From Armatimonadota bacterium (lineage in GTDB: Bacteria > Armatimonadota > UBA10988): 32,733 nt of DNA. This document shows positions 3,429-30,528 of this stretch, one piece after another. Both the position numbers and the translations under genes were made by a program. The DNA is taken from the NCBI GenBank assembly GCA_016235455.1, contig JACRKZ010000050.1:1-32733 (forward strand), read 5' to 3'. Within the stretch, counting starts at the first letter, position 1, and every line of letters starts with the position of its first letter. The notes under the pieces were generated by a model that did not search any database, was not told the DNA's origin, and saw only the letters and a list, made by a program, of their open reading frames with translations.

Positions 3429-6400
3429 CTACTTCGATCTTACATCCAGGCGCACCGCGCTCATGGCTGGTACGTCGAGCGCGACGGTCCGGCCCTCGAC
3501 CCGCCTGGCCGGCCATTGGCCCAGGCTGAAGCGGTCGACGCCGCTGTACTCCCAGACCGTGGCGTCCTGGGCCGGGATGGGCTGGGCCAGGCGCAGCGTG
3601 ACCCGGGCGTCCTTGGCCGCGCGGGTGTTGATCAGCACGAACGACAGCCGGCCGTCGGCCGCGCGGTAGGTGTGGACCGAGACATCCGTCGGCGCGGAGC
3701 AGGTGGACGGCAGGTACTGCTCGCCCACGGCGGTGTGCTTCCCGTCGGGGTTGCGTAGCAGCTTGTAGGCGAACCAGTGCGAGCTGTTGGGGGTCGGGAA
3801 GAGCCAGAGGAAGGCGTAGTCGAGGCCCTCGCGGGCGAACACGCCGAGCAACTCGGCCTGCGCCACGCCGCCTGAGACGTCCTGCTCACCGCCGAAGTTG
3901 TACTCGCCCAGGCTCGTCTGCAGGCCCGGATAGCACTCATCGACCCAGGAGCGCATGAGCCGCAGCAACTGGATCCGGCCGCCCGTCTCCTTGCCCATCC
4001 AACTGGGGTCCTTCCAGGTCGGATCCCACATCACCCGCGTCTCCTGCACCCGCGCCTCCATGGTCTTCGGGTCGCCCGGCGCGCCGGCCATGTAGATGCC
4101 GGTCTGCGGGTAGAAGTGCAGATCGAAGATGTCCAACAGGCGTTGGCCGGTCTTCTGCTCGTGCTCGCGCAGCCGGGTCAGATACCATTTGGCCAGCGGC
4201 ACCTTGCCGTGAGCGACGTAGTCCGGCGGAGCATCCCAGGTGCCCTGGCCCTGCTCCACGGCGGCGCGGTCGAGCCCGGAGAAGAAGTACGCCGTCCAAC
4301 CCCAGAAGGTTGGGCCCGCGATCTTCACGCTGGGATCGATGCCGCGGATCAGCCTGGCGTAGTCGGTGGTGCGCTGGAGGAAGGCGTCGTAGCCCAGCGG
4401 CTCGGTGACCATGCCGCGGTGGGTGCTCTGCCAGAGCATCGGCTCGTTGTCCAGCGCAACCACCTTGATGCCGCCCTTGTCGGCTGGGCCGTAGCCCAGC
4501 TTGTCGATCATGAACCGTAGGAACTCGGTTTGCTCCTCGGGCGTGACCGCCACCGACGTGTCGTCGGGGTTGGCCCGCACGTCGCGCAGCACGCGCTTGC
4601 CGTCCTTGTCCAGCACGAAGGCGCCGGCGGCGTCCTTGACGTACTGCCGCCCATTGCCGGCGTTGGGGTGCGGATCGGTGGGCTGCGAGCGGCCGGCCCA
4701 GGACTCCTGGTCCGGGTATTTGCCCGTGTCGAACGCAACCGACGTGCCGTCCTTGGCCACGCGGCCCATGCTGGGCAGCGTCAGGTAGCTCTGCAGGCCC
4801 GCAGCCTTGTTCTCGCCGTGAAAGCGCGCCAGCCAGGTGGCTTCGGGCGGCGTGTCGACGCCCTCGTTCTGGTAGTACCAGTCAGCGCCCTTGCTGCCGA
4901 AGCCGTGCCGCCAGTTGAACGGGCTGACCGGGTTGCCGCCGGCCCGGAGCATGGTCAGCCCGGCTTCCACGGCCGCCTTGCGGTCACCCATGGCCGCGGC
5001 ATAGATGAATGGGCTGACCGGCCGGCCCGGCGCGGCCGGGTCGATGTCGGCCGTCACGGTAGCGGCATCGGCGGCCAGCGCCCGCGGCGTACGCGGCAAC
5101 GGCGCGACCACCCACTGCGTGTGCAGCCGCGCGGCGCGGTTGTCGAAGCCGATGTCGTCGATCAGCAGGCTGAAGGCGCGCGCCTGCGGCTCCCAGCCGC
5201 GGATCTGCAGCTCCCAGGCTTTGCGCGGGTCGAAGTTGGTCTTCTTGGCGGCGTAGATGTCGGCCAGCGGGATGACCACCTCGTGCCACTGACCGAAGTC
5301 ATGCGGCGCGTCGGCGATGAGCCTGGCCCAGAAGCTGAGGTTGCGGTAGGTGCGGATGTCGACGCCGGCGTCGGCCGGCCACCAGCCGTACCAGTTCCAG
5401 CCACAGCCGATGTAGCCGCTGCCCTCGCCATGGAACTCCAGCGCCACCTTGCCCTCGTGCGTCTCGTCGCTCTGGGCGCGCAGGAAGTTGAGCCCGCCCG
5501 GCGGCGAGCACCAGCCCAGTCCGCCGCCCAGGCGTTCGCCGTCCCATACGGTGCGCTTGTCGTCGCGCGCGGCCACGGCCAGCGGCAGCGCCTGGCTGCT
5601 CAACCCACCCTTGTCGTCCTCGGCGATGATGCCGATGACGCGCGTGCCCGGCGCCAGCGGCTGGGCCAGGGCGAAGCGGTTGCCATAGGTCTTGTCACCG
5701 GCCTCACCGTCATCGTGCCGGCCGTCATCGAGCAGCGGCAGGTCGCCGCCACCCACCGCGCTCAAGTCGGCCCACACGCGCCGCAGCCCGCCGCGCCGCG
5801 TGGTGGCCGTGCCCGACAGCCACAAGGGCGCGCCGGTCTCGCCTTCCATCACGCTCAGCGGGTTGATCGCCGCGGCCAGCAGCAACGGGCCGCCCTTGGT
5901 CCACATCAGCCGGCCACGATACAGCCCGGCCCGGCCCAGGCCCAGGTAGACGGTGCGGCCGTCGCCCGCGGCCGTCCAGGCCGTGGCCACACGCACGTGG
6001 GCGAAGGGGTCGACCGCGTTGGCGATGCGCAACACCGATCGGGCCGGCGCGGGCACCTGCGTCTGCAGGCCGCCGGTCACGTCGGACCACGACTGACCAT
6101 AGTTGTCGCTCATCTCGACGGTGAAGATGCGGTCGTCGGTGCCCCACACCGGCTGCCGGTTCTCGCGGAACACCACCTCGCCCGCACTGCCCAACATGCG
6201 CGTGTGCTGCTCCATGGTGTAGTTCCAGGTGCGGCCGCCGTCGGCGCTCTTGGAGAAGCCGTGGTGCTTGCTGGTGAACAGCACTTCGCCCACCTGGGCC
6301 GTGGGCAAAGGCGCCGGGAAGTAGTCCACCGAGCCCGAGCCCGCCTGCCAGCTGGCGCCGGCATCGGCGGTCCACAGGATGCCGTCCTGCTCCCGCGAGG

Positions 6401-6917
6401 CCAGCACCCAGCGCTGCGCGTCGATAGCCAGCGGGTACTGCCCCTTGACCTCGCGCGGCAGGGCCGACGGCAGCCACGTGGCCCCGGCGTCACGGCTGAC
6501 TAGGAGCTCCTGGCCCGCTTTAGCTCCGGCCAGGACGAGTCTGGGATCGGCGGCGGAGAAGACCAGACTGGCCACCGACGCGGGGCTGACCTTGGTCCAG
6601 GTGCGCCCGCTGTCGGCCGAACGCAGCAGCCCGCCCGCCTGCTCGGCGGCGAGGATGACACCCGCTTGGGCCGGCGAGCCGGCGAGGGCCACGGGCGAGG
6701 TCAGGGCCAGCCGCGCCCAGTGGTCGCCGCTGTCGACCGAGAGCTGGGCGACGCCGTCGACCAGCGCCAGCACCACGCCCGGCGCGCCGCTGGCCAGTTC
6801 GGTCACACCGCGACCGTCGCCCAACGGCAACGGCCGCGGTTCCCAGCGCAGATAGCCGGCGCCGCGCGCCAGCGAGACGCAGCACAGTACGAGCAACAGC
6901 AGACCGCGACGAGCCAT
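3429..6917 (-). CDS. Multidomain glycoside hydrolase family 44 (endoglucanase/xyloglucanase-like) with N-terminal BNR beta-propeller and CBM-like module
   Basis: GH44 motifs LRAGGN, LDNEPMLWQSTHR (acid/base Glu), DLHFYPQ, GEYNFGG (nucleophile Glu). Asp-box repeats SVDSGDHW, SADSGRTW, SRDAGATW, SADGGRTW, SDNYGQSW. LLDDGRHDDGEAGDKTY motif. Signal peptide. Confidence 0.85.
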   Translation of the reverse strand: MARRGLLLLVLCCVSLARGAGYLRWEPRPLPLGDGRGVTELASGAPGVVLALVDGVAQLSVDSGDHWARLALTSPVALAGSPAQAGVILAAEQAGGLLRSADSGRTWTKVSPASVASLVFSAADPRLVLAGAKAGQELLVSRDAGATWLPSALPREVKGQYPLAIDAQRWVLASREQDGILWTADAGASWQAGSGSVDYFPAPLPTAQVGEVLFTSKHHGFSKSADGGRTWNYTMEQHTRMLGSAGEVVFRENRQPVWGTDDRIFTVEMSDNYGQSWSDVTGGLQTQVPAPARSVLRIANAVDPFAHVRVATAWTAAGDGRTVYLGLGRAGLYRGRLMWTKGGPLLLAAAINPLSVMEGETGAPLWLSGTATTRRGGLRRVWADLSAVGGGDLPLLDDGRHDDGEAGDKTYGNRFALAQPLAPGTRVIGIIAEDDKGGLSSQALPLAVAARDDKRTVWDGERLGGGLGWCSPPGGLNFLRAQSDETHEGKVALEFHGEGSGYIGCGWNWYGWWPADAGVDIRTYRNLSFWARLIADAPHDFGQWHEVVIPLADIYAAKKTNFDPRKAWELQIRGWEPQARAFSLLIDDIGFDNRAARLHTQWVVAPLPRTPRALAADAATVTADIDPAAPGRPVSPFIYAAAMGDRKAAVEAGLTMLRAGGNPVSPFNWRHGFGSKGADWYYQNEGVDTPPEATWLARFHGENKAAGLQSYLTLPSMGRVAKDGTSVAFDTGKYPDQESWAGRSQPTDPHPNAGNGRQYVKDAAGAFVLDKDGKRVLRDVRANPDDTSVAVTPEEQTEFLRFMIDKLGYGPADKGGIKVVALDNEPMLWQSTHRGMVTEPLGYDAFLQRTTDYARLIRGIDPSVKIAGPTFWGWTAYFFSGLDRAAVEQGQGTWDAPPDYVAHGKVPLAKWYLTRLREHEQKTGQRLLDIFDLHFYPQTGIYMAGAPGDPKTMEARVQETRVMWDPTWKDPSWMGKETGGRIQLLRLMRSWVDECYPGLQTSLGEYNFGGEQDVSGGVAQAELLGVFAREGLDYAFLWLFPTPNSSHWFAYKLLRNPDGKHTAVGEQYLPSTCSAPTDVSVHTYRAADGRLSFVLINTRAAKDARVTLRLAQPIPAQDATVWEYSGVDRFSLGQWPARRVEGRTVALDVPAMSAVRLDVRSK

Positions 6918-6998
6918 GGCCCTCTCCGAGGCGTCACCAAGCTATTCGATGCGCCGCGCCGAGGTCCTACCGCGGATCATGCATCGCTCAATGAGTCT

Positions 6999-8057
6999 CT
7001 AGCCGTGGGGCAGTTTGGCCGGGCGGATCATCTTGCTGTTGCCCACCCAGAAGCCCTCGAACGGCGGCGCCTTGGGCGCCGTGCCAGGCGCGCCGAGCTT
7101 GGCCAACACGCTCAACTCGTAGATGCGGGCCATGTTCTTGGCTTTGTAGTCGGGCGTGGTGATAGCCAGAACAATGGGCAGGCGCCATTGGGTGACCTGG
7201 CCAAAGACGTTGGTCTCGGCCACCTTCCACTCACCGCGCACGGCCACGGCCAGCACGGTGATCTTGCGCTCGCTGCCACCCCAGGTCTTCTCCGCAGCGA
7301 AGTAGTCGAGCGCCGCCTTGGCCAGCTGGCTGGTGCTGCCCGGCCCGCCGAACTCGGCCACGTGGCCCGGCCACACCGTGGCGTCGGCCTCCTGCTCGAT
7401 GCTGCGCACCGCGGTGGCAACCACCTGGTCGATGAGCGCCGCCTGCGCGTGCGCCTCGGCGCTGTTGGGATCCAGCTTGACCGCGAAGCCGAGCAGCGCC
7501 TTCCACTTCTCGGCCTGCTTGACCCGCACGTCGGGCGTGTAGAAGGTGATGGCGGGCATGGCCTTGACGTAGTCCACCAGGTACGTCGCGCTGGCCCGGC
7601 GGGTGCGACCGATGCTGTTGAGGCCTTTGAACAGCCGGCTGAAGGCGCGCGATCCGTCGTCGCGCCGGGCGGCCTTGAGCTCCCAGAAGCGGGTGTCGAC
7701 CGCGTTCTCGGTCTTGATCTCCCAGTTGGTGTCGGCGGGATCCTGAGCCGCCCCGTAGCGTTCGACAATCTGGGCCAGCACGGGCTGCACCGCCGGCACC
7801 GCCTCCTTCTCCACCTCGGCCAGGTTGCTCAGCAGCTTCTCGGCTTTGCCGATCATGCCTTCCTCGGTGGTCTCGTGGACCATGGCGCCGCCGGTGAAGG
7901 CGCCGAGCTGCTCGGCGTACTTGCCGCTCAACTCGATGAGCTTGTCGATGTCGGCATTCACCTGCTCGGGCGTGGGATCGGCCGCCAGGGCCGCCGTGGC
8001 GCAGACCAGCGCGAGAGCGGCCAGCAGCCAGCCGCGGCGAGTGGCATTGGGTTTCAT
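6999..8057 (-). CDS. Secreted hypothetical protein (possible Tat signal)
   Basis: Start moved to ATG 8057 (AGGAGG RBS). MKPNATRRGWLLAALALVCATAALA|AD; strong GC3 codon bias; no recognised catalytic motif. Confidence 0.75.
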   Translation of the reverse strand: MKPNATRRGWLLAALALVCATAALAADPTPEQVNADIDKLIELSGKYAEQLGAFTGGAMVHETTEEGMIGKAEKLLSNLAEVEKEAVPAVQPVLAQIVERYGAAQDPADTNWEIKTENAVDTRFWELKAARRDDGSRAFSRLFKGLNSIGRTRRASATYLVDYVKAMPAITFYTPDVRVKQAEKWKALLGFAVKLDPNSAEAHAQAALIDQVVATAVRSIEQEADATVWPGHVAEFGGPGSTSQLAKAALDYFAAEKTWGGSERKITVLAVAVRGEWKVAETNVFGQVTQWRLPIVLAITTPDYKAKNMARIYELSVLAKLGAPGTAPKAPPFEGFWVGNSKMIRPAKLPHG

Positions 8058-8205
8058 CGGTTCCCTCCTGGTGTGAGCCGCGCCTGTGGCGTCATGGCGC
8101 GATGCAGTTGAGTGTAGCGCAACCGCGACCCGCCCGCCACCGCATCCGCGGGGGCCTGTGGCGCGACGGCGTGTGCTATCCTCGGGCGCGGGAGGAGATT
8201 GAACC

Positions 8206-9429
8206 ATGAAGACCGTGCTATCCGCGCTGCTGGCGCTGGGTGTGCTGGCGAGCGCGGCCTGTGCCGAGCCGTTGCCGTTCACGGGGGTGAACCTGGCCAG
8301 CGGTGAGTTCTATGGGCCCAAGCCCGACGTGCGGCCAATCTACGGCAAGAACTTCATCTATCCCGGCGTGGCCGAGTACGCCTACTTCGCGTGGCACGGC
8401 GCCAACGTGTTCCGCGTGCCGTTCCTGTGGGAGACCATCCAGCCGCAAGCCAACGGCGACCTGGACCCGGAGATGCTGGGCCACCTCAAGGACGCTGTCA
8501 AGCTGGCCACCGACAAGGGCCTCGTGGTGGAGTTGGACCCGCACAACTACGCGCGCTACTACGGCAAGGTGTTGGGCACGCCCGAGGCGCCCGCGGCCAT
8601 GTTCGCCGACTTCTGGGCCAAGCTGGCCACCGCGTTCAAGGATGACCCGCGCGTCTGGTTCCAGCTCGTCAACGAGCCCCATGGCATCTCGGCGGCGGCC
8701 TGGTTCGATGTGGCCAACGAGGCGGTGCAGGCCATTCGCAAGACCGGCGCCACCAACCTGATCCTGCTGCCCGGCACGGCCTATAGCGGCGCGCATTCGT
8801 GGCAGGCGGACTGGTACGGCGGAGCCAACTCGGCGTCGGTGACCAAGGTCAAGGACCCCATCGACCACATGGTCATCGAGGTGCACCAGTACCTGGACGG
8901 CGACTCCAGCGGCACCAAGCCCGAGATCAAGAGCCCAACCATCGGCTCCGAGCGGCTCCGTGGCTTCGTCGCCTGGTGCCGCGCCAACAAGTACCGCGCC
9001 TTCCTGGGCGAGTTCGCGGTGCCCGCGAGCGAGGCCGGCAAGGTGGCGCTCGAGGACATGCTGGCCAGCATGGAGGCCGACCGCGACGTGTGGCTGGGCT
9101 GGACCTGGTGGGCCGCCGGCGCCTGGTGGCCCGACAACTACATGTTCTCGCTCAAGCCCACCGGCGGCGACAAGGCGCAGACCAAGTGGCTCGTGCCGCA
9201 TCTGCGCGGCCGCGAGGCGGCGACCGTCAAGCTGGCGCTCGATGGCGCGGCGAGCAGCGGGCCCGCGGTCTGTGGCACCCGCCTCACGCTCAAGGCCGGC
9301 CCCGCGCCGGCTGGCAAGACGTTCGCCAAGTGGACCGGCGACGTCGCCTTCCTGGCCGACGCGACCAAGGCCGAGACCACGCTGACCGTGCCCTACCGTG
9401 ATCTGAGCCTGAAGGTGACTTGGCGCTGA
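8206..9429 (+). CDS. Glycoside hydrolase family 5 cellulase/endoglucanase with C-terminal bacterial-repeat (InlB B-repeat-like) domain
   Basis: GVNLASGEF, FRVPFLWE, DPHNY, VNEPH (acid/base), EVHQYLD, FLGEF (nucleophile), WTWWAAG; C-terminal GKTFAKWTGD; GGAG RBS; signal peptide. Confidence 0.92.
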   Translation: MKTVLSALLALGVLASAACAEPLPFTGVNLASGEFYGPKPDVRPIYGKNFIYPGVAEYAYFAWHGANVFRVPFLWETIQPQANGDLDPEMLGHLKDAVKLATDKGLVVELDPHNYARYYGKVLGTPEAPAAMFADFWAKLATAFKDDPRVWFQLVNEPHGISAAAWFDVANEAVQAIRKTGATNLILLPGTAYSGAHSWQADWYGGANSASVTKVKDPIDHMVIEVHQYLDGDSSGTKPEIKSPTIGSERLRGFVAWCRANKYRAFLGEFAVPASEAGKVALEDMLASMEADRDVWLGWTWWAAGAWWPDNYMFSLKPTGGDKAQTKWLVPHLRGREAATVKLALDGAASSGPAVCGTRLTLKAGPAPAGKTFAKWTGDVAFLADATKAETTLTVPYRDLSLKVTWR

Positions 9430-16520: not shown

Positions 16521-18776
16521 CTACACCCCATGCGCCGTCCGCGCGATGATCGCCTCCTGCAGCGCCTCGGACAGGCTGGTGAAGTAGTCGCTGTAGCCGC
16601 CCACGCGCACGATCAGGTCGCGGTGCGCTTCAGGCTCGGCCTGCGCCGCGCGCAGAGTCTCGGTGTCCACCACGTTGATCTGCAACTGCATGCCACCCAG
16701 CGCGAAGTAGGCGCGCACGAGCTGGACGGCGGTGTCGAGCCCGGCCTGCGTGGTCAGCATCTCGCGCTGCAGGCGCATGTTGACCACCGGTGTGCCGGCC
16801 ATGAGCGCCAACGGCAGCTTGGTCACCGAGCGCAGCATGGCCGTCGGACCATGCGTGTCGCGGCCTTGCGCCGGCCCAGCGCTGTCGGCCATGACCGCAC
16901 CGGCTAGCCGGCCATCGGGCGTCGCACCCACGTAGGCACCGTCGCCGGCCCAGTGGTTGAACATGATGCAGCCCGGCAGGTAGCGCCCACCGCGCGGATG
17001 CGGCTGTCGATGCATCTCGCGGCAGACGAACTCGAGGATCTCACGACCCACATCGTCGGCCGCCGGATCGTCGTTGCCGAAGCGCGGCGCCGCCATCAAC
17101 AGGCGCCGCTCGGTCTCGTAGCCCTCGAAGTTGGCGGCCAGCGCGGCGCTGAGTGTGGTGCGGTCGAGTTTGCCCTGCTCATACACGCAGGTACGTAGCG
17201 CGGCCAGGCTGTCGATCAGGTTGGCGATGCCGATGACGTTGGTGATCGACCAGTTGTAGCGCGCGCCACCGGCCTCGAAGCCGCGGTGCCGCGCCACGCA
17301 GTCGCGGGTGAACAGCGTGCGGTAGAGCTTGGGGTCGCCCTCGGTGAAGCGTCGGCGGTAGTCGTCGGACAGATCGGTGAAGAAGACCGCCATGACATGG
17401 CTGATCTGCCGGCGCAACGCCGCCAGCAGGCTCTCGAAATCCTCGAAATCGACCAGCCGGCCCGTATGTGGACCCACCTGGCGCCGTTCGACCGGGTCGT
17501 AGCCGTCGTTCAGCGTGTATTCGAGGATCTTGGCCAGGTTGATGTCAATGCCCGGATAGTGCCGGCTGTGATAGCAACTGCTGCCGACGCTCGAACGGCC
17601 GGGGATCATCGACTCCGTGCAGCCGCCAAAGCCCAGGTCGCGCGCATCCTCGGGCGTCAGGCTCAGGTCGAGGTCGAGCAGCGTCTGCTGGTACAGGTCG
17701 TCGTTGTACAGCGCCGGCCGGCCGGTGCCGTTGCTCAGCGCCTGCAAGGCCAGCCGGACACCCGCGTCGGGCGTGCCCTTGGTGATGCGGAAGGCGACAT
17801 TGGGCCGCGCCAGCCGGTTGCGCTCACAGGCCAGCAGGATCTCGGCCGACAACGCGTTGTAGCCATCCTCGCCCGCGGGCGTGTAGCCACCGAGCTGCAG
17901 GTTGTAGCCGTTCATGCTCTCGATGCTGTGGAAATGCTCATCGAGCAGCCGCCGCGCGAAGTCGACATCGATGACGCCGGCCGCGAGATCCTGGTCGTAG
18001 AGCGCGCCGAGCAACTGGTCGAGCCGACCGACGTTGTCGCAGCCATCGAGCATCCACATGAAGTGGACCGCCAGGAAGCCCTGGTAGAACGTCGTCGCCG
18101 GCTGCAGGAAGCAGTCGCGGAAGCTGTCGCGCAAGTGCAGCAGTTCGGCGCGGCGCGGCTCGTCAGCCTGCTCCGCGGCCGCGCCGATGGCCTCCACCGC
18201 ACGGGCATGGAAGGCGCGGACGCCCTGCGCGTAGTCCCACACCGCGTCGAGCAGGTTCCGCTCGTCGTCGCCGGCCCCCGAGTCGGCCGCGTAGACCTTG
18301 GCCAGTTCCGCGGCCAGCTCGGCCTCCACCGCGTCGAAGCCCTCGGCCAGGATGCGCGGCGCGTCGGGGCAGTTGTGGGTGGAGTCGCCGAAGAAGTGGA
18401 AGCGCGGCCGCAAGTCGGCCAGCAGCGCGTCGATGAACTCCGCCTGCTCGGGGTGCCGGGCCTTCTTGATCTCCGCGGCCTCGCCGTTGGCGCGCAGCCC
18501 GCCGAAGTACTCGAAATCACAGATGCCGCCCAGCACCGACCACTGGCCACGGGCGGGATTGGCCGCGCGCAGCAGCTCGTGCGGCTCACATGGCATCAGC
18601 AGCCCATCCTCGGGCACGCGGATGAGCATGTGCTCGTACAGGCGGCGATAGGCCCGGCCGTAGGCCCGTGGCCAGGGCAGGTCGAGCCCTTCGTAGAGGC
18701 CGAGCGCGGCCCACTCGCCCAGCGCTCGCAGGCGGTCTTCGTAGTCTGGGAAACGGTCGGACAGCGTGACGGCCAT
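16521..18776 (-). CDS. Glycyl radical enzyme (pyruvate formate-lyase superfamily, non-PFL), substrate unknown
   Basis: Gly loop LIVRVGGYS, single-Cys loop GGCTES, ATPDGR, PRFGND, LQINVVD. Start moved to ATG 18776 (GAGGAG RBS). Confidence 0.9.
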   Translation of the reverse strand: MAVTLSDRFPDYEDRLRALGEWAALGLYEGLDLPWPRAYGRAYRRLYEHMLIRVPEDGLLMPCEPHELLRAANPARGQWSVLGGICDFEYFGGLRANGEAAEIKKARHPEQAEFIDALLADLRPRFHFFGDSTHNCPDAPRILAEGFDAVEAELAAELAKVYAADSGAGDDERNLLDAVWDYAQGVRAFHARAVEAIGAAAEQADEPRRAELLHLRDSFRDCFLQPATTFYQGFLAVHFMWMLDGCDNVGRLDQLLGALYDQDLAAGVIDVDFARRLLDEHFHSIESMNGYNLQLGGYTPAGEDGYNALSAEILLACERNRLARPNVAFRITKGTPDAGVRLALQALSNGTGRPALYNDDLYQQTLLDLDLSLTPEDARDLGFGGCTESMIPGRSSVGSSCYHSRHYPGIDINLAKILEYTLNDGYDPVERRQVGPHTGRLVDFEDFESLLAALRRQISHVMAVFFTDLSDDYRRRFTEGDPKLYRTLFTRDCVARHRGFEAGGARYNWSITNVIGIANLIDSLAALRTCVYEQGKLDRTTLSAALAANFEGYETERRLLMAAPRFGNDDPAADDVGREILEFVCREMHRQPHPRGGRYLPGCIMFNHWAGDGAYVGATPDGRLAGAVMADSAGPAQGRDTHGPTAMLRSVTKLPLALMAGTPVVNMRLQREMLTTQAGLDTAVQLVRAYFALGGMQLQINVVDTETLRAAQAEPEAHRDLIVRVGGYSDYFTSLSEALQEAIIARTAHGV

Positions 18777-18797
18777 GGTCCGGCTCCTCGTGCAGTG

Positions 18798-18825
18798 CGC
18801 TGTGCGCTCTGCGCAGCGCACAGCG
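18798..18825. promoter_or_regulatory. Perfect 11-bp inverted repeat between divergent genes
   Basis: CGCTGTGCGCT-N6-AGCGCACAGCG, ~20 bp upstream of the glycyl radical enzyme start. Confidence 0.4.
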
Positions 18826-18871: not shown

Positions 18872-19129
18872 ATGGGCGACCTCAAAGACCCGCGGCTGAT
18901 GTGGCTCAAGGCGGCACTGTTCGTCGTCGCGGTGCTGCTGGCCTCGGCCGGGCTGCTGGCCCAGCAGCCCGAATGGCGCACCGCGCTGCTGCTGGCGATC
19001 GCAGTGGTCTGCGCCTGCCGTTTCTACTACTTCTGCTTCTACGTCATCGAACACTACATCGACGACCAGTTCCGCTTCGCCGGACTGTGGTCGGTGTTGC
19101 TCTACCTCTGGCGGCGCCGCTCCGGCTAG
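18872..19129 (+). CDS. Small hypothetical membrane protein
   Basis: 85 aa, two hydrophobic helices, aromatic-rich CRFYYFCFYVIEHYID; coding-like GC3. Confidence 0.75.
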   Translation: MGDLKDPRLMWLKAALFVVAVLLASAGLLAQQPEWRTALLLAIAVVCACRFYYFCFYVIEHYIDDQFRFAGLWSVLLYLWRRRSG

Positions 19130-19319
19130 CGCGGCAGGCCAATGGCGATCCCCACCGAGCACAGCCGCCCCATCGTGATCCGACGCCATGTGGATCATAT
19201 GTTTGCATAGCAGAAACCATTACTAAAGCCCGTCAGATTCGTCTCCTTGCGCGGATGTTGCGCGATGGGGCGGATCAGCGGGCGATCTCGCGGCGCGCAT
19301 CTGGTCAGAGGGACGAGTC

Positions 19320-19811
19320 ATGCCAGAGCGAGTCAAGACGCCAGCCGAGAGCCGGCCGCGACGTGGCCGGGAGGCGTTCGATCCGAGCGTGGCGCGTTTC
19401 TTCCTGGCCTTGGGCGCCGTGGGTGAGGTGAGTCGCGCCGCGCAGCTAGCCGGCGTGGACGAGGACACGGCCTGGGGCTGGCTGGATCAGATCCCTCGGC
19501 CGGCGTGGCTGACACGTCGGGCCGAGGCGGCGACCCGCATGTTCGACCTGGCCTGTGAGGCGCTGGCCCAGACCCAGCGCGTGTTGCGTGGCGAGACGGA
19601 CGAGTGCGGTGAGCCAACGGTGAAGGTTGGCCTAAGGGAGCTGGTGATGGTGGCGGAGCGGTTCTTCGCGGCAGCCCTGAAGCTCGACCGGGAAGTAGGT
19701 ACCGATGCCGACCCCGAGCTATCGATCGACCTGGGTGCGTGGGCGCAAGCGGCCGATCGCCTGGGACGGGCCCCAGCCCCATCCGGGGCAGCTGGAGGTT
19801 CTGTCGAGTAG
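19320..19811 (+). CDS. Putative terminase small subunit-like HTH protein
   Basis: HTH-like LGAVGEVSRAAQLAGVDEDTAWGW followed by helical segments; lies directly upstream of and overlaps the terminase large subunit. Confidence 0.55.
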   Translation: MPERVKTPAESRPRRGREAFDPSVARFFLALGAVGEVSRAAQLAGVDEDTAWGWLDQIPRPAWLTRRAEAATRMFDLACEALAQTQRVLRGETDECGEPTVKVGLRELVMVAERFFAAALKLDREVGTDADPELSIDLGAWAQAADRLGRAPAPSGAAGGSVE

Positions 19812-20958
19812 CGCCCGATTCCGCGTTCTGGCCTGTGGCCGCCGCTGGGGCAAGAGCCTGCTGGCGCTCATGGCCTGCCTGCTCGAAGCCAGGAAGGCCG
19901 GCGCGCAGATCTGGTATGTGGCCCCCACCTTTCGCATGGTGGACCTGCACTGGCGCACGCTGCGGCGCAACCTGCCGCCCGGCTATCCGGCGCGCCTGAA
20001 GCAGGCCGAACGCCGGCTGGTGTGTGACAACGGCGCGGAGATCGTCTTCCGCTCGGCCGACAACCCCGACCACCTGCGCGGCGTGGGCCTCGACTTCCTG
20101 GTGGTCGATGAGGCGGCCTTCATCGCCAACGGCGCGACCGCCTGGGGCGAGGCCATGCGCCCGACCCTGGCCGACCGCCGCGGGCGCGCGCTGATCATCT
20201 CTACCCCGCGCGGCCACGACTGGTTCCACAGCATGTACAGCCGCGGCCAGGACCCGGGCGAGCCCGACAGCACGGCCTTCTGGTTCCCCACGGCCAGCAA
20301 CCCGACCATCGCGCCGGGCGAGGTGGAAGCGGCGGCGCGCGAGCTGCCCCAGCGCATCTTCGAGCAAGAGTTCGAGGCGCGCTTCCTCGACGACGGCGGC
20401 TCGGTCTTCCGCGGTGTGCGGCGCGCGGCGGTGCTGGCGCCGGCCGAGCCCTATCCGGGCCGCTTCGTGGTGGGCGTCGACTGGGGCAAGCGCGACGACT
20501 TCACCGTGTTCTGCGTGCTCGATACCGAGTGCGGCGCGGTGGTGGCGCTGGAGCGGTTCAACCAGATCGACTACGCGGTCCAGACCCAGCGACTGGGCAC
20601 GCTGTGCGAGCGCTGGCGGCCGAAGCTGGTGCAGGCCGAGCAGAACTCCATCGGTGAGCCGCTGCTGGAGCAGTTGCTGCGCGACGGCCTGCCGGTGCGC
20701 GGCTTCAAGACCACCGCCGGCAGCAAGACGCGGATCATCGACAACCTGGCCCTGGCGCTCGACCAGCAGGCGCTGACCCTGCCGGCCGACCCGGTGCTGG
20801 TCTGCGAGCTGGAGGCCTACACCATGGAGCCCACGCGCTCGGGCCACTACCGCTATTCGGCGCCGCCGGGCCTGCACGACGACTGCGTGATGGCCCTGGC
20901 CTTGGCCTGGGACGCCCGCGACCAGGCCACCGACGACCTGTTGGCGGCCTTCCTATGA
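19705..20958 (+). CDS. terL: Phage terminase large subunit (ATPase plus RNase H-like nuclease)
   Basis: Q-motif PHPGQ, Walker A ACGRRWGKS, Walker B FLVVDEAA, motif III ISTPRG, FEQEF, nuclease GVDWG and HDDCVMALALA. Start uncertain. Confidence 0.92.
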   Translation: MPTPSYRSTWVRGRKRPIAWDGPQPHPGQLEVLSSSARFRVLACGRRWGKSLLALMACLLEARKAGAQIWYVAPTFRMVDLHWRTLRRNLPPGYPARLKQAERRLVCDNGAEIVFRSADNPDHLRGVGLDFLVVDEAAFIANGATAWGEAMRPTLADRRGRALIISTPRGHDWFHSMYSRGQDPGEPDSTAFWFPTASNPTIAPGEVEAAARELPQRIFEQEFEARFLDDGGSVFRGVRRAAVLAPAEPYPGRFVVGVDWGKRDDFTVFCVLDTECGAVVALERFNQIDYAVQTQRLGTLCERWRPKLVQAEQNSIGEPLLEQLLRDGLPVRGFKTTAGSKTRIIDNLALALDQQALTLPADPVLVCELEAYTMEPTRSGHYRYSAPPGLHDDCVMALALAWDARDQATDDLLAAFL

Positions 20959-21079: not shown

Positions 21080-22065
21080 ATGGCCAACGCCCGCCGCCGT
21101 GATTGAATCCCAGACCTGAGCCAGCCCCTGCCTGGCTTGGCCCATCCTGTCTGGTAGCGCTACCTGCCGTGCGCCGTGGTCGGTGCCTTGGCGCGGGGCT
21201 GCGGGGTGCGCGGCTATCGGCGCGTGTATGATCCGTTGGTCGTGTTGTGGGCCCTGGTGGACGACGCGCTGAGCGGCAACCTCAGCCTGGAAGCGCAGGT
21301 CGAGCGGCTGGCGGCGGTGTCAGGCCGCGAACTGAGCGCGGGCAGCGGGGCCCTATGTCGAGCGCGGCAGCGCCAGCCGGTGGCCCTGATGCGGGCCTGC
21401 GCGGAGCATGTTGCGCGCGTGGCGGCCGGCTTCCAACGCAACGCTGGGTCGTGGGTCGACTACGCGGTCGACGGGTCCTACACGGCGTTGCTGGACAGTC
21501 CGGCCAATCAGGAGCGCGATCCGCAGTCGGCTTGTCAGCGGGCAGGTTGTGGCTGGCCGCTGCTGCACGCCGTAGCTCTGGTGGACCAGGGCACGGGTTG
21601 CAGCGTGGCCATGTCGCTGGGCGGACTGGGCGACCATGACGCCAAGCTGGCCCGCCCCTTGTGGGACCGCCTGGCGCGCGGCGACCGAGTGGTCATGGAT
21701 CGGGGGTTCGCCTCGTACGGCATGTTGACCGCGGCCCAGCGGCGGGGCTGGACGGTGGTCATGCGGCAGCACCAACGCCGGCTCAACAGCGAGCCGTTGA
21801 CGGGCGACGGTGACGACCGGCTGGAGACCTGGTCGGTGCCCAACAAGCGCCCTGACTGGTGGGATGCGCAGCGGCCGGCGCGGCAGGCGGTGCGCGTGGT
21901 GCGGCAGCGGCGGCGTGATGGCACTCAGCACCAACGTTGGCGCGGAGCAGTTGAGCCACGCCGAGGTGCTGGCCCTGTACGAGCAGCGCTGGCGCATCGA
22001 GACGCGCTTCCTCGAACTCAAGCACTACCTGGCCATCGAGCCAGTGTGCGCGCGCCAACGGTCCC
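21080..22065 (+). pseudogene. IS4-family transposase pseudogene
   Basis: YAVDGS and VVMDRGF (D, D). The IS4 YREK signature YEQRWRIETRFLELK lies in another frame after a shift near 21923. Two in-frame stops follow ATG 21080, and the C-terminus is missing. Confidence 0.85.
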
Positions 22066-22106
22066 GGCTGCGGCGTAACGCCGGCTGCGGCGTAACGCCG
22101 GCTGCG
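22064..22106 (+). repeat. 17-bp tandem repeat, about 2.5 copies
   Basis: CCGGCTGCGGCGTAACG x2 plus CCGGCTGCG. Confidence 0.9.
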
Positions 22107-22236
22107 ATGCCGAACAGCAGGAGCGGCTGCTCGGTGCCGCGCGGCCCGCGCGCCAGTCTTGTCCCTGACAGACCCCGTCGCTCGCGCCTATGATGGCCGT
22201 GGCACACGTCGTTGCAGTGGCCGCGGGAGAGCAGGG

Positions 22237-27468: not shown

Positions 27469-30400
27469 ATGGCTACGCCAGATCGCATCACGGAGCTGAG
27501 CGACCGCTTCGACAGCCTGCGAGCGCAGTACCAGAGCAGTGCCTACAACGAAACGCAGGTGCGACGTGACTTCCTGGACCCGCTGTTCCGCGAACTGGGC
27601 TGGGACGTCGACAACCAGCAAGGCCACGCCGAGGCCTATCGCGATGTGATCTGCGAGTACTCGTTGACCGGCGCTGGACCGGCGACGCGGCCGGACTACT
27701 GCTTTCAGATAGGTGGCCGGCCGATCTTCTTCGCCGAGGCCAAGAAGCCGTCCGTGGTCCTCAAGGACGACATCGCCGCCGCCTACCAGATTCGGCGCTA
27801 CGCTTGGTCCGCCAAGCTGTCGCTGAGCATCCTGACCGACTTCGAGGAGTTTGCCGTCTACGACTGCCGGGCCAAGCCGGTGAAAACCGACTCGGCTGCT
27901 CAGGGCCGCGTGTTGTACATGACCTATCGGGATTACGCCGCCCGATGGGACGAAATCGCCGCACGGTTCAGCAAGACCGCCGTGCTCAAGGGCGCGTTCG
28001 ATGAGTACGCGAAGAGCAGCAAGGCGAAGCGCGGCACCGCTGATGTCGACGATGCCTTCCTGGCTGAACTCGAAGGCTGGCGCGAGATGCTGGCGCGCAA
28101 CCTGGCGCTGCGTAACGCCGCGCTTACGTCGCGCCAGCTCAACCACGCGGTGCAGGCCACGCTCGACCGCATCATCTTCCTGCGCATCGCGGAAGATCGC
28201 GGCATCGAGAGCTACGGCCAGATGCAGGGCCTGCTCAACGGCACGGGCATCTACGGTCGGCTCACAAAGCTGTTCAAGGATGCCGACGATAAGTACAACT
28301 CCGGCCTCTTCCACTTCGGCAGCGAGAAGGGCCGCGCCGGCAGCGATGACGGCTGGACGCTGAACCTCAACCTCGATGACAAGGTGCTCAAGGACATCAT
28401 CAAGGGCCTCTACTTTCCCGACAGCCCCTACGCCTTTGCCGTGGTGCCCGCCGATCTGCTCGGTCAGGTCTACGAACGGTTCCTGGGCAAGGTCATCCGC
28501 CTCACGGCTGGGCACCAGGCCAAGGTCGAGGAGAAGCCGGAGGTCAAGAAGGCTGGTGGCGTCTACTACACGCCAACCTACATCGTCGACCACATCGTTC
28601 GCCGCACGGTGGAGCCGTTGTTGGAGGGCAAGCAACCCAAGCAGGTCGCCACACTGCGCATCCTGGACCCCGCGTGTGGCTCGGGCTCGTTTCTTCTGGG
28701 CGCCTACGACTACCTGCTCGACTGGTACTTGACGGCCTACAGCGACAAGCCCGCCGAGTGGCTCAAGGGCAAGGAGCCGCGGCTGGCGCAGACACCGGGC
28801 GGCTATCGCCTGACCACGCGCGAGCGCAAGCGCATCCTCACCGACCACCTGTTCGGCGTCGACATCGACGCGCAGGCGGTGGAGGTGACCAAGCTGTCGC
28901 TCCTGCTCAAGGTGCTCGAAGGCGAGAACGAGCAGTCGCTCAACAGGCAGCTCAGCCTGTTTCACGAGCGCGCGCTACCCGACCTGGACCGGAACATCCA
29001 GTGCGGCAACTCGCTGCTCGGCCCGGAGTTCTACACCAGCCACCTGCCCGGCACACTGGACGACGAGACCGAGTACCGGGTCAACGTCTTCGACTGGCAG
29101 GCTGGGTTCCCGGCCGCCATGGCCGCCGGTGGGTTCGACGCCGTCGTCGGCAACCCGCCGTACATCCGTATCCAAACACTCAAGGAGTGGGCGCCGGTCG
29201 AGGTCGAGGAGTACAAGCAGCGCTACCGCTCGGCGGGCCGCGGCAACTACGACATCTACGTGGTCTTCGTCGAGCGCGGGCTGGCTCTGCTCAATGCCAA
29301 CGGCCGGTTGGGCTTCATTCTGCCGCACAAGTTCACCAATGCCAAGTACGGAGAGCCGCTACGCGCACTGGTGGCTGCCGGTCGGCACCTGGCCGAGGTC
29401 ATTCACTTCGGCGACCGGCAAGTGTTCGAGGGAGCCACGACGTACACCTGCCTGATGTTTCTGGACAAGTGTGGGGCTGAGAAGTGCCAGGTCACGCATG
29501 TGGCGGACCTGGCAGCATGGGACCGGGGAGAGGCGATGCCATCAGGGCATGTGGCTGCAGCCGACCTCGGCTCGGGTGAATGGTCCTTCGCCGTTGGCAA
29601 TTCGGGCCGGCTGCTTACCAAAGTTGCCGACGGTCTCCTGCTGTTGGGCGACATCGTCGATCAGTTTGTGGGTGTTCAGACCAGCGCCGACAGCGTGTAT
29701 ATCCTGACTGAACAGGCGACTTTCGGGCCAGAGCCGAGCTACTTGTCCGTGGCCCTCGGCGAGAGCATCGCCATTGAACCAGGCCTACTCCGGCATATAG
29801 TGAGTGGCACCGATGTCAGCAGATACGGTGCCATGCCACGCCGTCAGGTCATCCTCTATCCGTACGACGTGACCGACGAGACCGCGACGCTGATCGACTT
29901 CGCCGACCTGCAGGACCGGTTCCCCGCCGGGGCCGAGTATCTGCACCGCAACCGTGCCCAACTGGAGGGCCGTGAAGGTGGCAAGTTCCGTGACGAGCAC
30001 TGGTACAGGTTCGGCCGCAACCAGAACATCGGCATCCAGTCCCGTGTGAAGCTCTGTGTGCCGCGCCTCGTCAAGCGCCTGTGTGCAGCCCCTGATCCAG
30101 ATGGCTCGCGCTGCCTTGACAACGTGGATGTGGGCGGGTTGACGATCCGTACCGCCTTCGCAGACCTAGACAGGCGGTACCTGCTGGCCATCCTCAATAG
30201 CCGGCTTCTAGGCTGGTACTTCCCCTATATCAGTGCGCCGTTCAGTGGGGGCTTCTGGTCGGCCAACCGCCAGTTCCTGAGCCGTGCGCCTATCCGTTTG
30301 GCCAGCCCAACCGTCCCCGAGGACGTCGCCCGGCACGACGAACTGGTGAACCTGGTCGACCAGATGCTGGCTCTTCACAAGCAGCTTTGCGCGGACCTGG

Positions 30401-30528
30401 CGCCGCGTGAGCGCCAACAGACCGAGCGGCGCATCACCGCCACGGACACCCGCATCGACCAGATCGTCTACGAGCTGTACGGGCTGAGCGACAAGGAAAT
30501 CGCCCTGGTCGAGGATACGACCGGGTGA
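27469..30528 (+). CDS. Type IIG restriction-modification enzyme (fused endonuclease, N6-adenine methyltransferase and TRD; Eco57I-like)
   Basis: N-terminal PD-(D/E)xK nuclease RPDY...AEAKK, GVYYTP, motif I DPACGSG, motif IV GNPPY, TaqI-C-like C-terminus, IDQIVYELYGL tail; GGAG RBS. Confidence 0.92.
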   Translation: MATPDRITELSDRFDSLRAQYQSSAYNETQVRRDFLDPLFRELGWDVDNQQGHAEAYRDVICEYSLTGAGPATRPDYCFQIGGRPIFFAEAKKPSVVLKDDIAAAYQIRRYAWSAKLSLSILTDFEEFAVYDCRAKPVKTDSAAQGRVLYMTYRDYAARWDEIAARFSKTAVLKGAFDEYAKSSKAKRGTADVDDAFLAELEGWREMLARNLALRNAALTSRQLNHAVQATLDRIIFLRIAEDRGIESYGQMQGLLNGTGIYGRLTKLFKDADDKYNSGLFHFGSEKGRAGSDDGWTLNLNLDDKVLKDIIKGLYFPDSPYAFAVVPADLLGQVYERFLGKVIRLTAGHQAKVEEKPEVKKAGGVYYTPTYIVDHIVRRTVEPLLEGKQPKQVATLRILDPACGSGSFLLGAYDYLLDWYLTAYSDKPAEWLKGKEPRLAQTPGGYRLTTRERKRILTDHLFGVDIDAQAVEVTKLSLLLKVLEGENEQSLNRQLSLFHERALPDLDRNIQCGNSLLGPEFYTSHLPGTLDDETEYRVNVFDWQAGFPAAMAAGGFDAVVGNPPYIRIQTLKEWAPVEVEEYKQRYRSAGRGNYDIYVVFVERGLALLNANGRLGFILPHKFTNAKYGEPLRALVAAGRHLAEVIHFGDRQVFEGATTYTCLMFLDKCGAEKCQVTHVADLAAWDRGEAMPSGHVAAADLGSGEWSFAVGNSGRLLTKVADGLLLLGDIVDQFVGVQTSADSVYILTEQATFGPEPSYLSVALGESIAIEPGLLRHIVSGTDVSRYGAMPRRQVILYPYDVTDETATLIDFADLQDRFPAGAEYLHRNRAQLEGREGGKFRDEHWYRFGRNQNIGIQSRVKLCVPRLVKRLCAAPDPDGSRCLDNVDVGGLTIRTAFADLDRRYLLAILNSRLLGWYFPYISAPFSGGFWSANRQFLSRAPIRLASPTVPEDVARHDELVNLVDQMLALHKQLCADLAPRERQQTERRITATDTRIDQIVYELYGLSDKEIALVEDTTG

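Follow-up and report, generated by a model that had tools for sequence, protein, structure and literature searches.

The terminase genes studied here lie at positions 19320 to 20958 of a 32,733-nucleotide stretch of Armatimonadota DNA (GenBank JACRKZ010000050.1, assembly GCA_016235455.1; hereafter the window), which is the entire contig C27 of a 6.5-Mb draft genome in 185 contigs (G000; completeness 93%, estimated contamination 0.84%). A gene for a protein resembling the terminase small subunit (TerS-like) is followed by the gene for the terminase large subunit (TerL), and we think it somewhat probable that this pair is the packaging module of a domesticated, host-maintained head-tail gene cluster of phage descent, which is spread over several loci and resembles a gene transfer agent (GTA). 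We favour this reading because the partner genes are found in the same genome, the cluster is present throughout the family, its evolution is slow and splits have occurred in other genomes. The comparison set comprised G000, one genome of the same genus (G001) and four other genomes of the family (G002-G005), whose closest named relatives are Fimbriimonadaceae/Armatimonadetes metagenome-assembled genomes (MAGs); for TerL the search was extended to a phylum-wide sample of 61 genomes.

An earlier note on this DNA had described an intact TerL after a TerS-like gene, in a window that held no further phage structural genes, and a scan of 30 open reading frames (ORFs) agrees with it: aside from the pair, there was no phage structural, integrase or lysis match in the window. 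The note's word "solitary", however, is true of the window only. A genome-wide search for unlinked portal and capsid genes, as it had proposed, located them on contig C70, where a portal gene, a fused protease-capsid ORF and a 133-aa tube gene run on the minus strand from about 6224 down to 2667. The only Phage_portal match in the 6.5 Mb is at C70:5067-6017 (6e-56), and the only Phage_capsid match is on C70 as well; the same genome has one TerL and no PF03354 terminase match. Compared with the genes that directly follow terL in G002-G005, the C70 genes are 66-70% (portal), 62-74% (protease-capsid) and 71-73% (133-aa gene) identical.

Judged from its predicted structure and its look-alikes, the 133-aa protein is most probably the tail-tube protein. 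Its language-model look-alikes are viral, some with Phage_tail_2 (27% of one cluster), and its model (pLDDT 63) matched 37 BFVD entries at E<=0.001, those named "tail tube protein" and "major tail protein TP901-1" ranking first. When the model was compared with the PDB in a VIA-wide fold search, the best Z was 7.8, and flavin reductases turned up among the tail, tube and hub chains, so that this search does not decide the matter by itself. Beside the tube gene, at C70 2281-2628 on the minus strand, a truncated tandem copy codes for 115 aa and is near-identical in its central part; it is a rearrangement scar, at the point where the adaptor gene follows in G001. A 505-aa ORF on C70 was considered as a diverged adaptor and rejected, as it had no similarity.

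In G002-G005 the cluster is contiguous. There, a spacer of 13-18 nt separates terL from a portal gene (PF04860, up to 3.7e-59), behind which come genes for an S78 prohead protease and an HK97-type capsid, and then a gene of 89-132 aa, one for a head-tail adaptor of about 200 aa (phrog_442, up to 2e-25) and the highly conserved 133-aa gene. These clusters of roughly 7-13 kb are set between ordinary host genes (URO-D, sulfatase, MatE, APH, BACON, RlmN, GFO oxidoreductase, lipoate ligase and citrate synthase), and none of the 52 flank ORFs scanned in the relatives was an integrase, replication, regulator or lysis gene. Around the copies examined, no integrase, lysogeny-control, replication or lysis module of the kind that belongs to an intact temperate prophage was found, and the ancestral cluster seen in the relatives is no full prophage. 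A full sipho-type prophage is present in G040, where a TerL 44% identical to that of the window stands with a tape measure, ParB-like and replication genes. At G017:C151 17838-19112 (minus strand) a TerL of 43% identity has no recognisable portal gene adjacent, and the downstream ORFs have no PHROG structural matches. About 3.4 kb beyond the last cluster gene of G005 there is a 157-aa ORF (G005:C16 15935-16408) with a podophage Gp80 domain (PF23140, 4.6e-24; phrog_240 "head protein").

The contiguous cluster bears on the idea that the terminase pair was co-opted on its own, apart from the remaining phage-derived genes, to do something other than packaging, for instance defence or DNA processing. 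As co-option would have it, the pair does stand apart from all other phage-like genes in two genomes of the genus, but all four relatives with downstream DNA showing it (G002-G005) have the cluster in one piece, and the portal, capsid and tube genes of the same genome are conserved to the same degree as the pair. The pair has no linked defence genes, and the type IIG restriction-modification gene of the window is 6.5 kb off in a separate low-GC stretch. We therefore consider such a co-option very unlikely, and for a packaging hijack or an anti-phage decoy, which the earlier note had also put forward, no evidence was found.

Beyond the tube gene the relatives differ in what is still attached. 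In G005 it is directly followed by ORFs of 279, 151, 702, 574, 137 and 242 aa; in G002 the 279-aa homologue comes after the tube gene and then the contig ends. The 279-, 702-, 574- and 242-aa homologues of G004 are on another contig beside DnaX, isochorismatase and clostripain-type genes, and in G003 the 702-, 574-, 137- and 242-aa homologues open another contig, with a glycosyltransferase gene after them. G001 has a convergent glycoside hydrolase gene and not the portal after terL, and the homologue of this hydrolase in G000 is on yet another contig. Its tube gene comes immediately after the capsid gene, an order shared with G000, and the adaptor comes after the tube. A portal gene was not found in G001, which is 80% complete and has its capsid gene at a contig edge; contig C164 of this genome is 3.5 kb long and contains runs of N. 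Split loci are thus seen in G000, G001, G003 and G004, at different places.

A compact head-and-packaging set lacking adjacent tail-tip genes, as in G003 and G004, with each copy at a different chromosomal position, could also be expected of a capsid-forming phage satellite (cf-PICI-like), which would make its own capsids, package itself and take its other functions from a helper phage. We regard this as improbable. Integrase, AlpA/MerR-type regulator and primase-replicase genes were absent from the 52 flank ORFs, and host genes stand at both ends. The tail-tube gene is inside the cluster, whereas tail genes are "forbidden" in the cfPICI model given in a passage of PMC10085698. Moreover, a helper prophage would show itself by a second portal, capsid or terminase, of which G000 has none, and there is one copy of the cluster per genome in every genome of the family.

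TerL was recovered from all five other family genomes at 63-71% identity, with one best copy each, and some TerL match was obtained in 31 of the 61 phylum genomes, mostly far weaker. In a tree of 79 rows, 17 metagenome proteins group with the six family copies in a clade (SH-aLRT 96) that contains no viral contig, with G000 and G001 in one subclade (98); the viral contigs are in the sister clade, at 52% identity at best. Between G000 and G001, dN is 0.220 for TerL, 0.195 for the capsid and 0.246 for the tube, versus 0.175 for RpoB; the TerS-like protein is faster (0.47-0.55 against G002, G004 and G005). TerL, capsid and tube are 71-74% identical between these two genomes, and two neighbouring host genes 53-57%. 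In trees of five taxa, with RpoB as the one host marker, the terminal branch of G000 measures 0.126 for TerL, capsid and tube together and 0.112 for RpoB, and G000 and G001 are paired in both (84/99 for the module, 100/100 for RpoB). The module and RpoB trees are partly congruent, with no strongly supported conflict: of the comparison between TerL and species tree that had been proposed, the pairing of G000 with G001 came out in agreement and a second inner branch, weakly supported, did not.

The TerL gene of the window (417 aa, 19705..20958, plus strand) is identified by its Pfam, PHROG and PDB matches. With Terminase_6N at 8.2e-11 (42.4 bits, cut-off 22) and Terminase_6C at 1.2e-06 (29 bits, cut-off 22.6), the ATPase and the RNaseH-like nuclease domain are both over the family cut-offs, as in the Terminase_6 type (PF03237 and PF17289), and the best PHROG match is phrog_2, "terminase large subunit" (1.6e-40). 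Its top solved relatives are the ATPase (4zni, 2.5e-23) and nuclease (5tge, 1.1e-20) domains of TerL from phages P74-26/G20c, and the PDB sequence matches span residues 22-185 and 253-404 only. Walker A (CGRRWGKS), the HLRG arginine, Walker B with its presumed catalytic Glu (LVVDEA) and ISTP are present, as are the acidic residues assigned to the nuclease (GVDW.K..D, AE.N and HDD), and all are identical in the six family sequences. The HLRG arginine is at the position of the R-to-A difference between chains 4zni and 4znj. The start at ATG 19705 is backed by N-terminal conservation from residue 8 (STW). GC at third codon positions (GC3) is 0.94 in terL and 0.81-0.94 in the other genes of the window, so that the alignments and the composition bear out the intact motifs and host-like GC3 that the earlier note had reported. 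Antisense to terL there is a 514-aa open frame (19333-20877, minus strand), a by-product of high GC and no gene; open frames alone are therefore weak evidence in this genome.

The TerS-like ORF (163 aa, 19320..19811, plus strand) is a conserved gene, as its alignments indicate, because it has 19 homologues (135-163 aa) and a constant place upstream of terL: in all three relatives with assembled upstream DNA (G002, G004 and G005) the gene is directly upstream of terL and 45-50% identical. It had no Pfam, PHROG or NCBIfam match. An AF2 model (pLDDT 74) has three short helices at residues 22-56, a long helical hairpin at 62-127 and a disordered C-terminal tail. Foldseek found nothing at E<=0.001 in the PDB or BFVD, its top PDB matches being the small terminases of G20c at non-significant values (E 0.7, TM 0.25-0.30), and in a VIA fold search the G20c/P74-26 small terminase reached Z 5.3-6.1 over the hairpin only, among many unrelated helical hairpins. 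The earlier description of a "TerS-like HTH gene" therefore stands as to a conserved gene upstream of terL and has no significant family or fold match behind its name; a helix-turn-helix (HTH) TerS is plausible, the label resting on position and helix layout and not on family membership. The two genes of the pair overlap out of frame by 107 nt (19705-19811); the overlap is about 116 nt in G004 and little in G005.

The break in G000 falls in the spacer between terL and portal that is 13-18 nt long in the relatives; here, terL is followed by non-portal sequence and then by the remnant of an IS4-family transposase gene, frameshifted and truncated (21176..22193, plus strand). NF033592 matches it in two frames, both under the cut-off, and DDE_Tnp_1 at 5.4e-10. 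The ORF at 21176-22078 covers profile positions 13-264 of 332 with 92 bits (cut-off 115), and the ORF at 21810-22193 covers positions 263-306, the C-terminus being missing. No convincing terminal inverted repeats were seen around it and no second copy was found in the G000 genome. Lacking both a transposase over the cut-off and inverted repeats, the element is a remnant and not an intact IS4. The note had also placed the end of the IS 24 bp after terL, which could not be confirmed, since the transposase similarity begins about 230 nt past the terL stop. A cluster cut off by the IS4 was correct insofar as the remnant sits exactly at the portal place of the relatives, but the part cut off has not been lost. 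The C70 portal gene comes with a Shine-Dalgarno sequence of its own, and before it stand a terminator-like hairpin and a 462-aa ORF. The latter is in the 6300-8726 stretch of C70, on the portal's strand, and has an HEGTH motif and no family match; three tandem small ORFs in the same stretch (85-99 aa, mutually similar) are on the opposite strand and may be PepSY-like.

Near-identical sequences from bioreactor metagenomes extend these observations to other strains. Contigs that match parts of terS and terL at 93-100% identity came from one DNA run and from three RNA-library runs. Among the terL differences listed, a partial set outside which there are 48 more over the compared stretch, 18 of 23 are at third codon positions and 17 of 20 affected codons are synonymous. 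The contig from the DNA run departs from the window 7 nt past the terL stop, shares an 11-nt string with the window's downstream sequence and has no ribosome site or start after terL of the kind seen at the relatives' portal junction. This weakly suggests that the separation of terL from portal predates the split between these strains. The RNA-library contigs also cover parts of a glycyl-radical enzyme gene and of an 85-aa ORF, two neighbours of the pair in the window. The IS region is uncovered in the RNA and DNA runs alike and is therefore unusable as a silent control.

In the 93%-complete assembly of G000, the adaptor, 89-aa and 279-aa genes were not found (tblastn at 1e-4; profiles at 0.01), so that the set in this genome may be incomplete and non-functional. 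It is for this reason that a slowly decaying remnant is the main rival explanation: ancient prophage fragments, no longer functional in G000, left by IS-linked breakage and deletion of neck and tail genes, with ORFs still open through slow or recent decay. The truncated duplicate beside the intact tube gene and the IS4 remnant at the break are in keeping with such a history, and high-GC genomes keep long frames by chance, as the antisense ORF over terL illustrates. Nevertheless, the divergence on the G000 branch is near that of RpoB, all catalytic motifs of TerL are intact, and most of the changed terL codons among those listed are synonymous in near relatives that have window-like, non-portal sequence after the stop. 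In G001 terL is also apart from portal, yet TerL, capsid and tube are better conserved there than the host neighbours. The missing neck genes may moreover fall in assembly gaps, because contig C144, which carries tail-tip genes, starts inside a tape-measure gene. We consider the remnant explanation rather unlikely, and the GTA-like reading, with its unlinked parts, family-wide presence, slow evolution and other splits, remains the best fit among the origins that had been proposed, the neck genes that were not found in G000 being the strongest argument that the machine is not complete in this genome.

The tail-tip set in question, the only one found in G000 and possibly a part of the same machine, occupies positions 1-8416 of C144, with a tape measure (PF20155, 4.4e-16) and then proteins of 816 and 1304 aa; after it come pilin-like, MutY-like and FtsA genes. 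Its orthologues are on G003:C187 and G005:C152, both at contig starts, and G003 and G005 carry both tail-tip sets. The 816-aa protein is 27% identical to the 702-aa protein of the cluster.

The contigs could also have been brought together wrongly, C27 and C70 coming from different organisms or being chimeric. The draft has 185 contigs, and no overlaps between the ends of C27, C70 and C144 were found that would link them. However, both junctions, that of the terL stop with the IS region and that of the upstream gene with portal, are well inside their contigs. Contamination is low, and the GC of C27 (0.695) is inside the range of 0.674-0.709 spanned by 40 listed G000 contigs. The identity to any given relative is alike for TerL, portal and capsid, every part is present in a single copy, and the independent DNA run has a near-identical terL that likewise lacks a portal start downstream. 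An assembly or binning artefact is for these reasons the least probable of the explanations that we weighed, and highly unlikely.

A two-part motif precedes the cluster. Upstream of the TerS-like gene of the window (19197..19263, plus strand) it consists of a half palindrome, ATATGTTTG (19197-19205), and, after 41 nt, the tandem TTGCGC-N5-TTGCGC (19247-19263). In G002 and G004, about 60-190 nt upstream of TerS, CAAACA-N2-4-(T)GTT(T/C)G is followed after 42-44 nt by a tandem TTGCGS-N5-TTGCGS, and G005 has both elements upstream of TerS in reversed order. The strict two-part motif matches once in the G000 genome, at C70:8790-8866 on the minus strand, that is on the strand of portal and 2.5 kb upstream of it; this copy is nearer to the form of G002 and G004 than is the degenerate copy of the window. 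A local alignment of the two G000 regions scored 27, against a shuffle mean of 17.8 (sd 2.7, maximum 34). Five tail-tip loci that stand apart from the cluster, that of C144 among them, had no copy of the motif before them. C70 may be the ancestral site, from which a segment with leader, terS and terL would have been copied or moved to C27 and then lost at C70. The motif may serve host control. As a possibility that we hold only tentatively, the Fimbriimonadaceae-like Armatimonadota would have a GTA that was independently domesticated and is vertically inherited, its structural genes being scattered over several loci, the terminase even apart from the portal. A two-part operator, made up of a CAAACA..TGTTTG palindrome and then tandem TTGCGS, would hold these loci together in one regulon and would have been retained at both halves after the split.

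Several points weigh against the GTA-like reading, in addition to the neck genes. Every genome is a draft MAG, and C27, C70 and C144 are joined by binning alone. No lysis gene, regulator or head-completion set was identified, and the set that the G005 cluster carries is related to that of C144 only as a distant paralogue (27-34%). Between any two genomes there was no flank synteny, a pattern that mobility would give as well. The earlier note had expected the 85-aa membrane gene and the glycyl-radical enzyme gene to accompany the pair in related genomes; the relatives are without these neighbours, and when 18 window proteins were compared with the loci of five relatives only the TerS-like protein and TerL matched, plus one generic receiver-domain hit. 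By that note's own reasoning this counts against a domestication conserved at its site. An inner branch of the trees also differs, with G004 and G005 together for the module (68/70) and G004 and G002 for RpoB (100/99). The dN/dS between genomes (Nei-Gojobori, 0.3-0.7 for all genes including rpoB) was dropped as a measure in favour of dN relative to RpoB; at the family level it is an upper bound only, because synonymous sites are saturated, with pS about 0.4 even for rpoB. The RNA-library contigs may contain DNA and give neither strand nor level, and no silent control stretch is covered. For the motif, the tandem repeat alone is not enriched (7 matches in the genome, 6 expected), and the C70 copy is followed by the three opposite-strand small ORFs and the 462-aa ORF before portal is reached.

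If the GTA-like reading holds, terS and terL on C27 and the portal, protease-capsid and tube genes on C70 would be expressed in trans, perhaps by way of the upstream motif that they have in common. TerS would bind DNA, TerL would use its ATPase and nuclease to pump DNA through the C70 portal into HK97-type proheads, and tailed particles with host DNA would be released. According to passages of PMC9662315, GTAs and other viriforms have particle proteins derived from caudoviruses, package mostly random host DNA, are fully endogenised, often at several loci, have a head too small for their own genes and are mostly inherited vertically, co-diversifying with the host. The family studied here has recognisable genes for TerL, portal, S78 protease, HK97 capsid, adaptor and tail tube. 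Host genes abut the cluster, and it is split in four genomes. The cluster is present in six of six family genomes, with the one inner branch in disagreement with RpoB (five taxa, one marker). The parts of G000 are unlinked, hence one headful could presumably not carry them all.

Among known systems the closest are GTAs such as RcGTA of Rhodobacter capsulatus. The likeness to such GTAs extends to the head-tail cluster itself (TerS, TerL, portal, protease, HK97 capsid, adaptor, tube and tail tip), to its place among host genes with no integrase, replication or lysis genes adjacent, and to the several loci, lineage-wide presence and slow evolution; RcGTA, too, has a multi-locus "genome" (PMC5026251). 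The tube model gave a weak fold match to the RcGTA particle chain 6tba_5A (Z 6.3, rmsd 5.5, 111 aligned), with unrelated folds mixed in. In contrast to RcGTA, the present cluster is in another phylum and is known here from genes, and in G000 the packaging genes themselves are parted from portal. With capsid-forming satellites it shares the compact set of terS, terL, portal, protease/capsid and head-tail adaptor, and a fused protease-capsid ORF like that of C70 occurs in some cfPICIs, as described in part of PMC10085698. The same source gives cfPICIs an integrase, a regulator (AlpA/MerR/Stl) and a primase-replicase, and no tail genes. None of these three was seen in the scanned flanks of G002-G005 or in the window, whereas a tube gene is in the cluster and tail-tip genes are contiguous with it in G005; the family genomes have a single copy, and no helper prophage is seen in G000. 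Phages P74-26/G20c offer the closest solved relatives of both TerL domains by sequence, and their TerS was on top of the non-significant Foldseek PDB matches, but their terminase genes belong to complete viruses. A defective prophage would likewise have structural genes in the absence of a complete phage and an IS remnant at the break; presence in six of six family genomes, RpoB-like divergence, intact motifs and the conserved upstream motif set the cluster apart from it.

Proven GTAs are few and come from a handful of lineages, the alphaproteobacterial and Brachyspira GTAs being those named in the relevant part of PMC9662315. Literature searches found no GTA report for Armatimonadota, a GTA passage that came up being concerned with Rhodobacteraceae. 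If true, the GTA-like reading would add to the cases of virus domestication a new one that can be tested, from a phylum that is mostly uncultured and has been little studied, its relevance being limited by draft MAG data and gene-only evidence. The cluster stands out in being family-wide and free of mobile-element genes, and its parts have stayed intact through breaks that differ from genome to genome. The separation of terminase from portal amounts to a natural experiment, in which two halves that are both still selected for would have to function in trans; for the study of host control, the motif conserved upstream gives a point of entry. A lesson for annotation is that an "orphan terminase" in a draft genome needs a check of the whole assembly before it is called a remnant or given a new function.

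Elsewhere in the window, the plus strand at 27469-30528 codes for a type IIG-style fused restriction-modification protein of 1019 aa, with HSDR_N, Eco57I/N6_Mtase/MmeI_Mtase and TaqI_C domains. GC dips around this gene to 0.63-0.65 (27500-30500), against about 0.70 elsewhere, and the stretch is probably an acquired island. Upstream of the pair, the glycyl-radical enzyme gene (PFL-like and Gly_radical, 16521-18821, minus strand) stands beside the 85-aa ORF (18872-19129, plus strand), which is hydrophobic and high in GC3.

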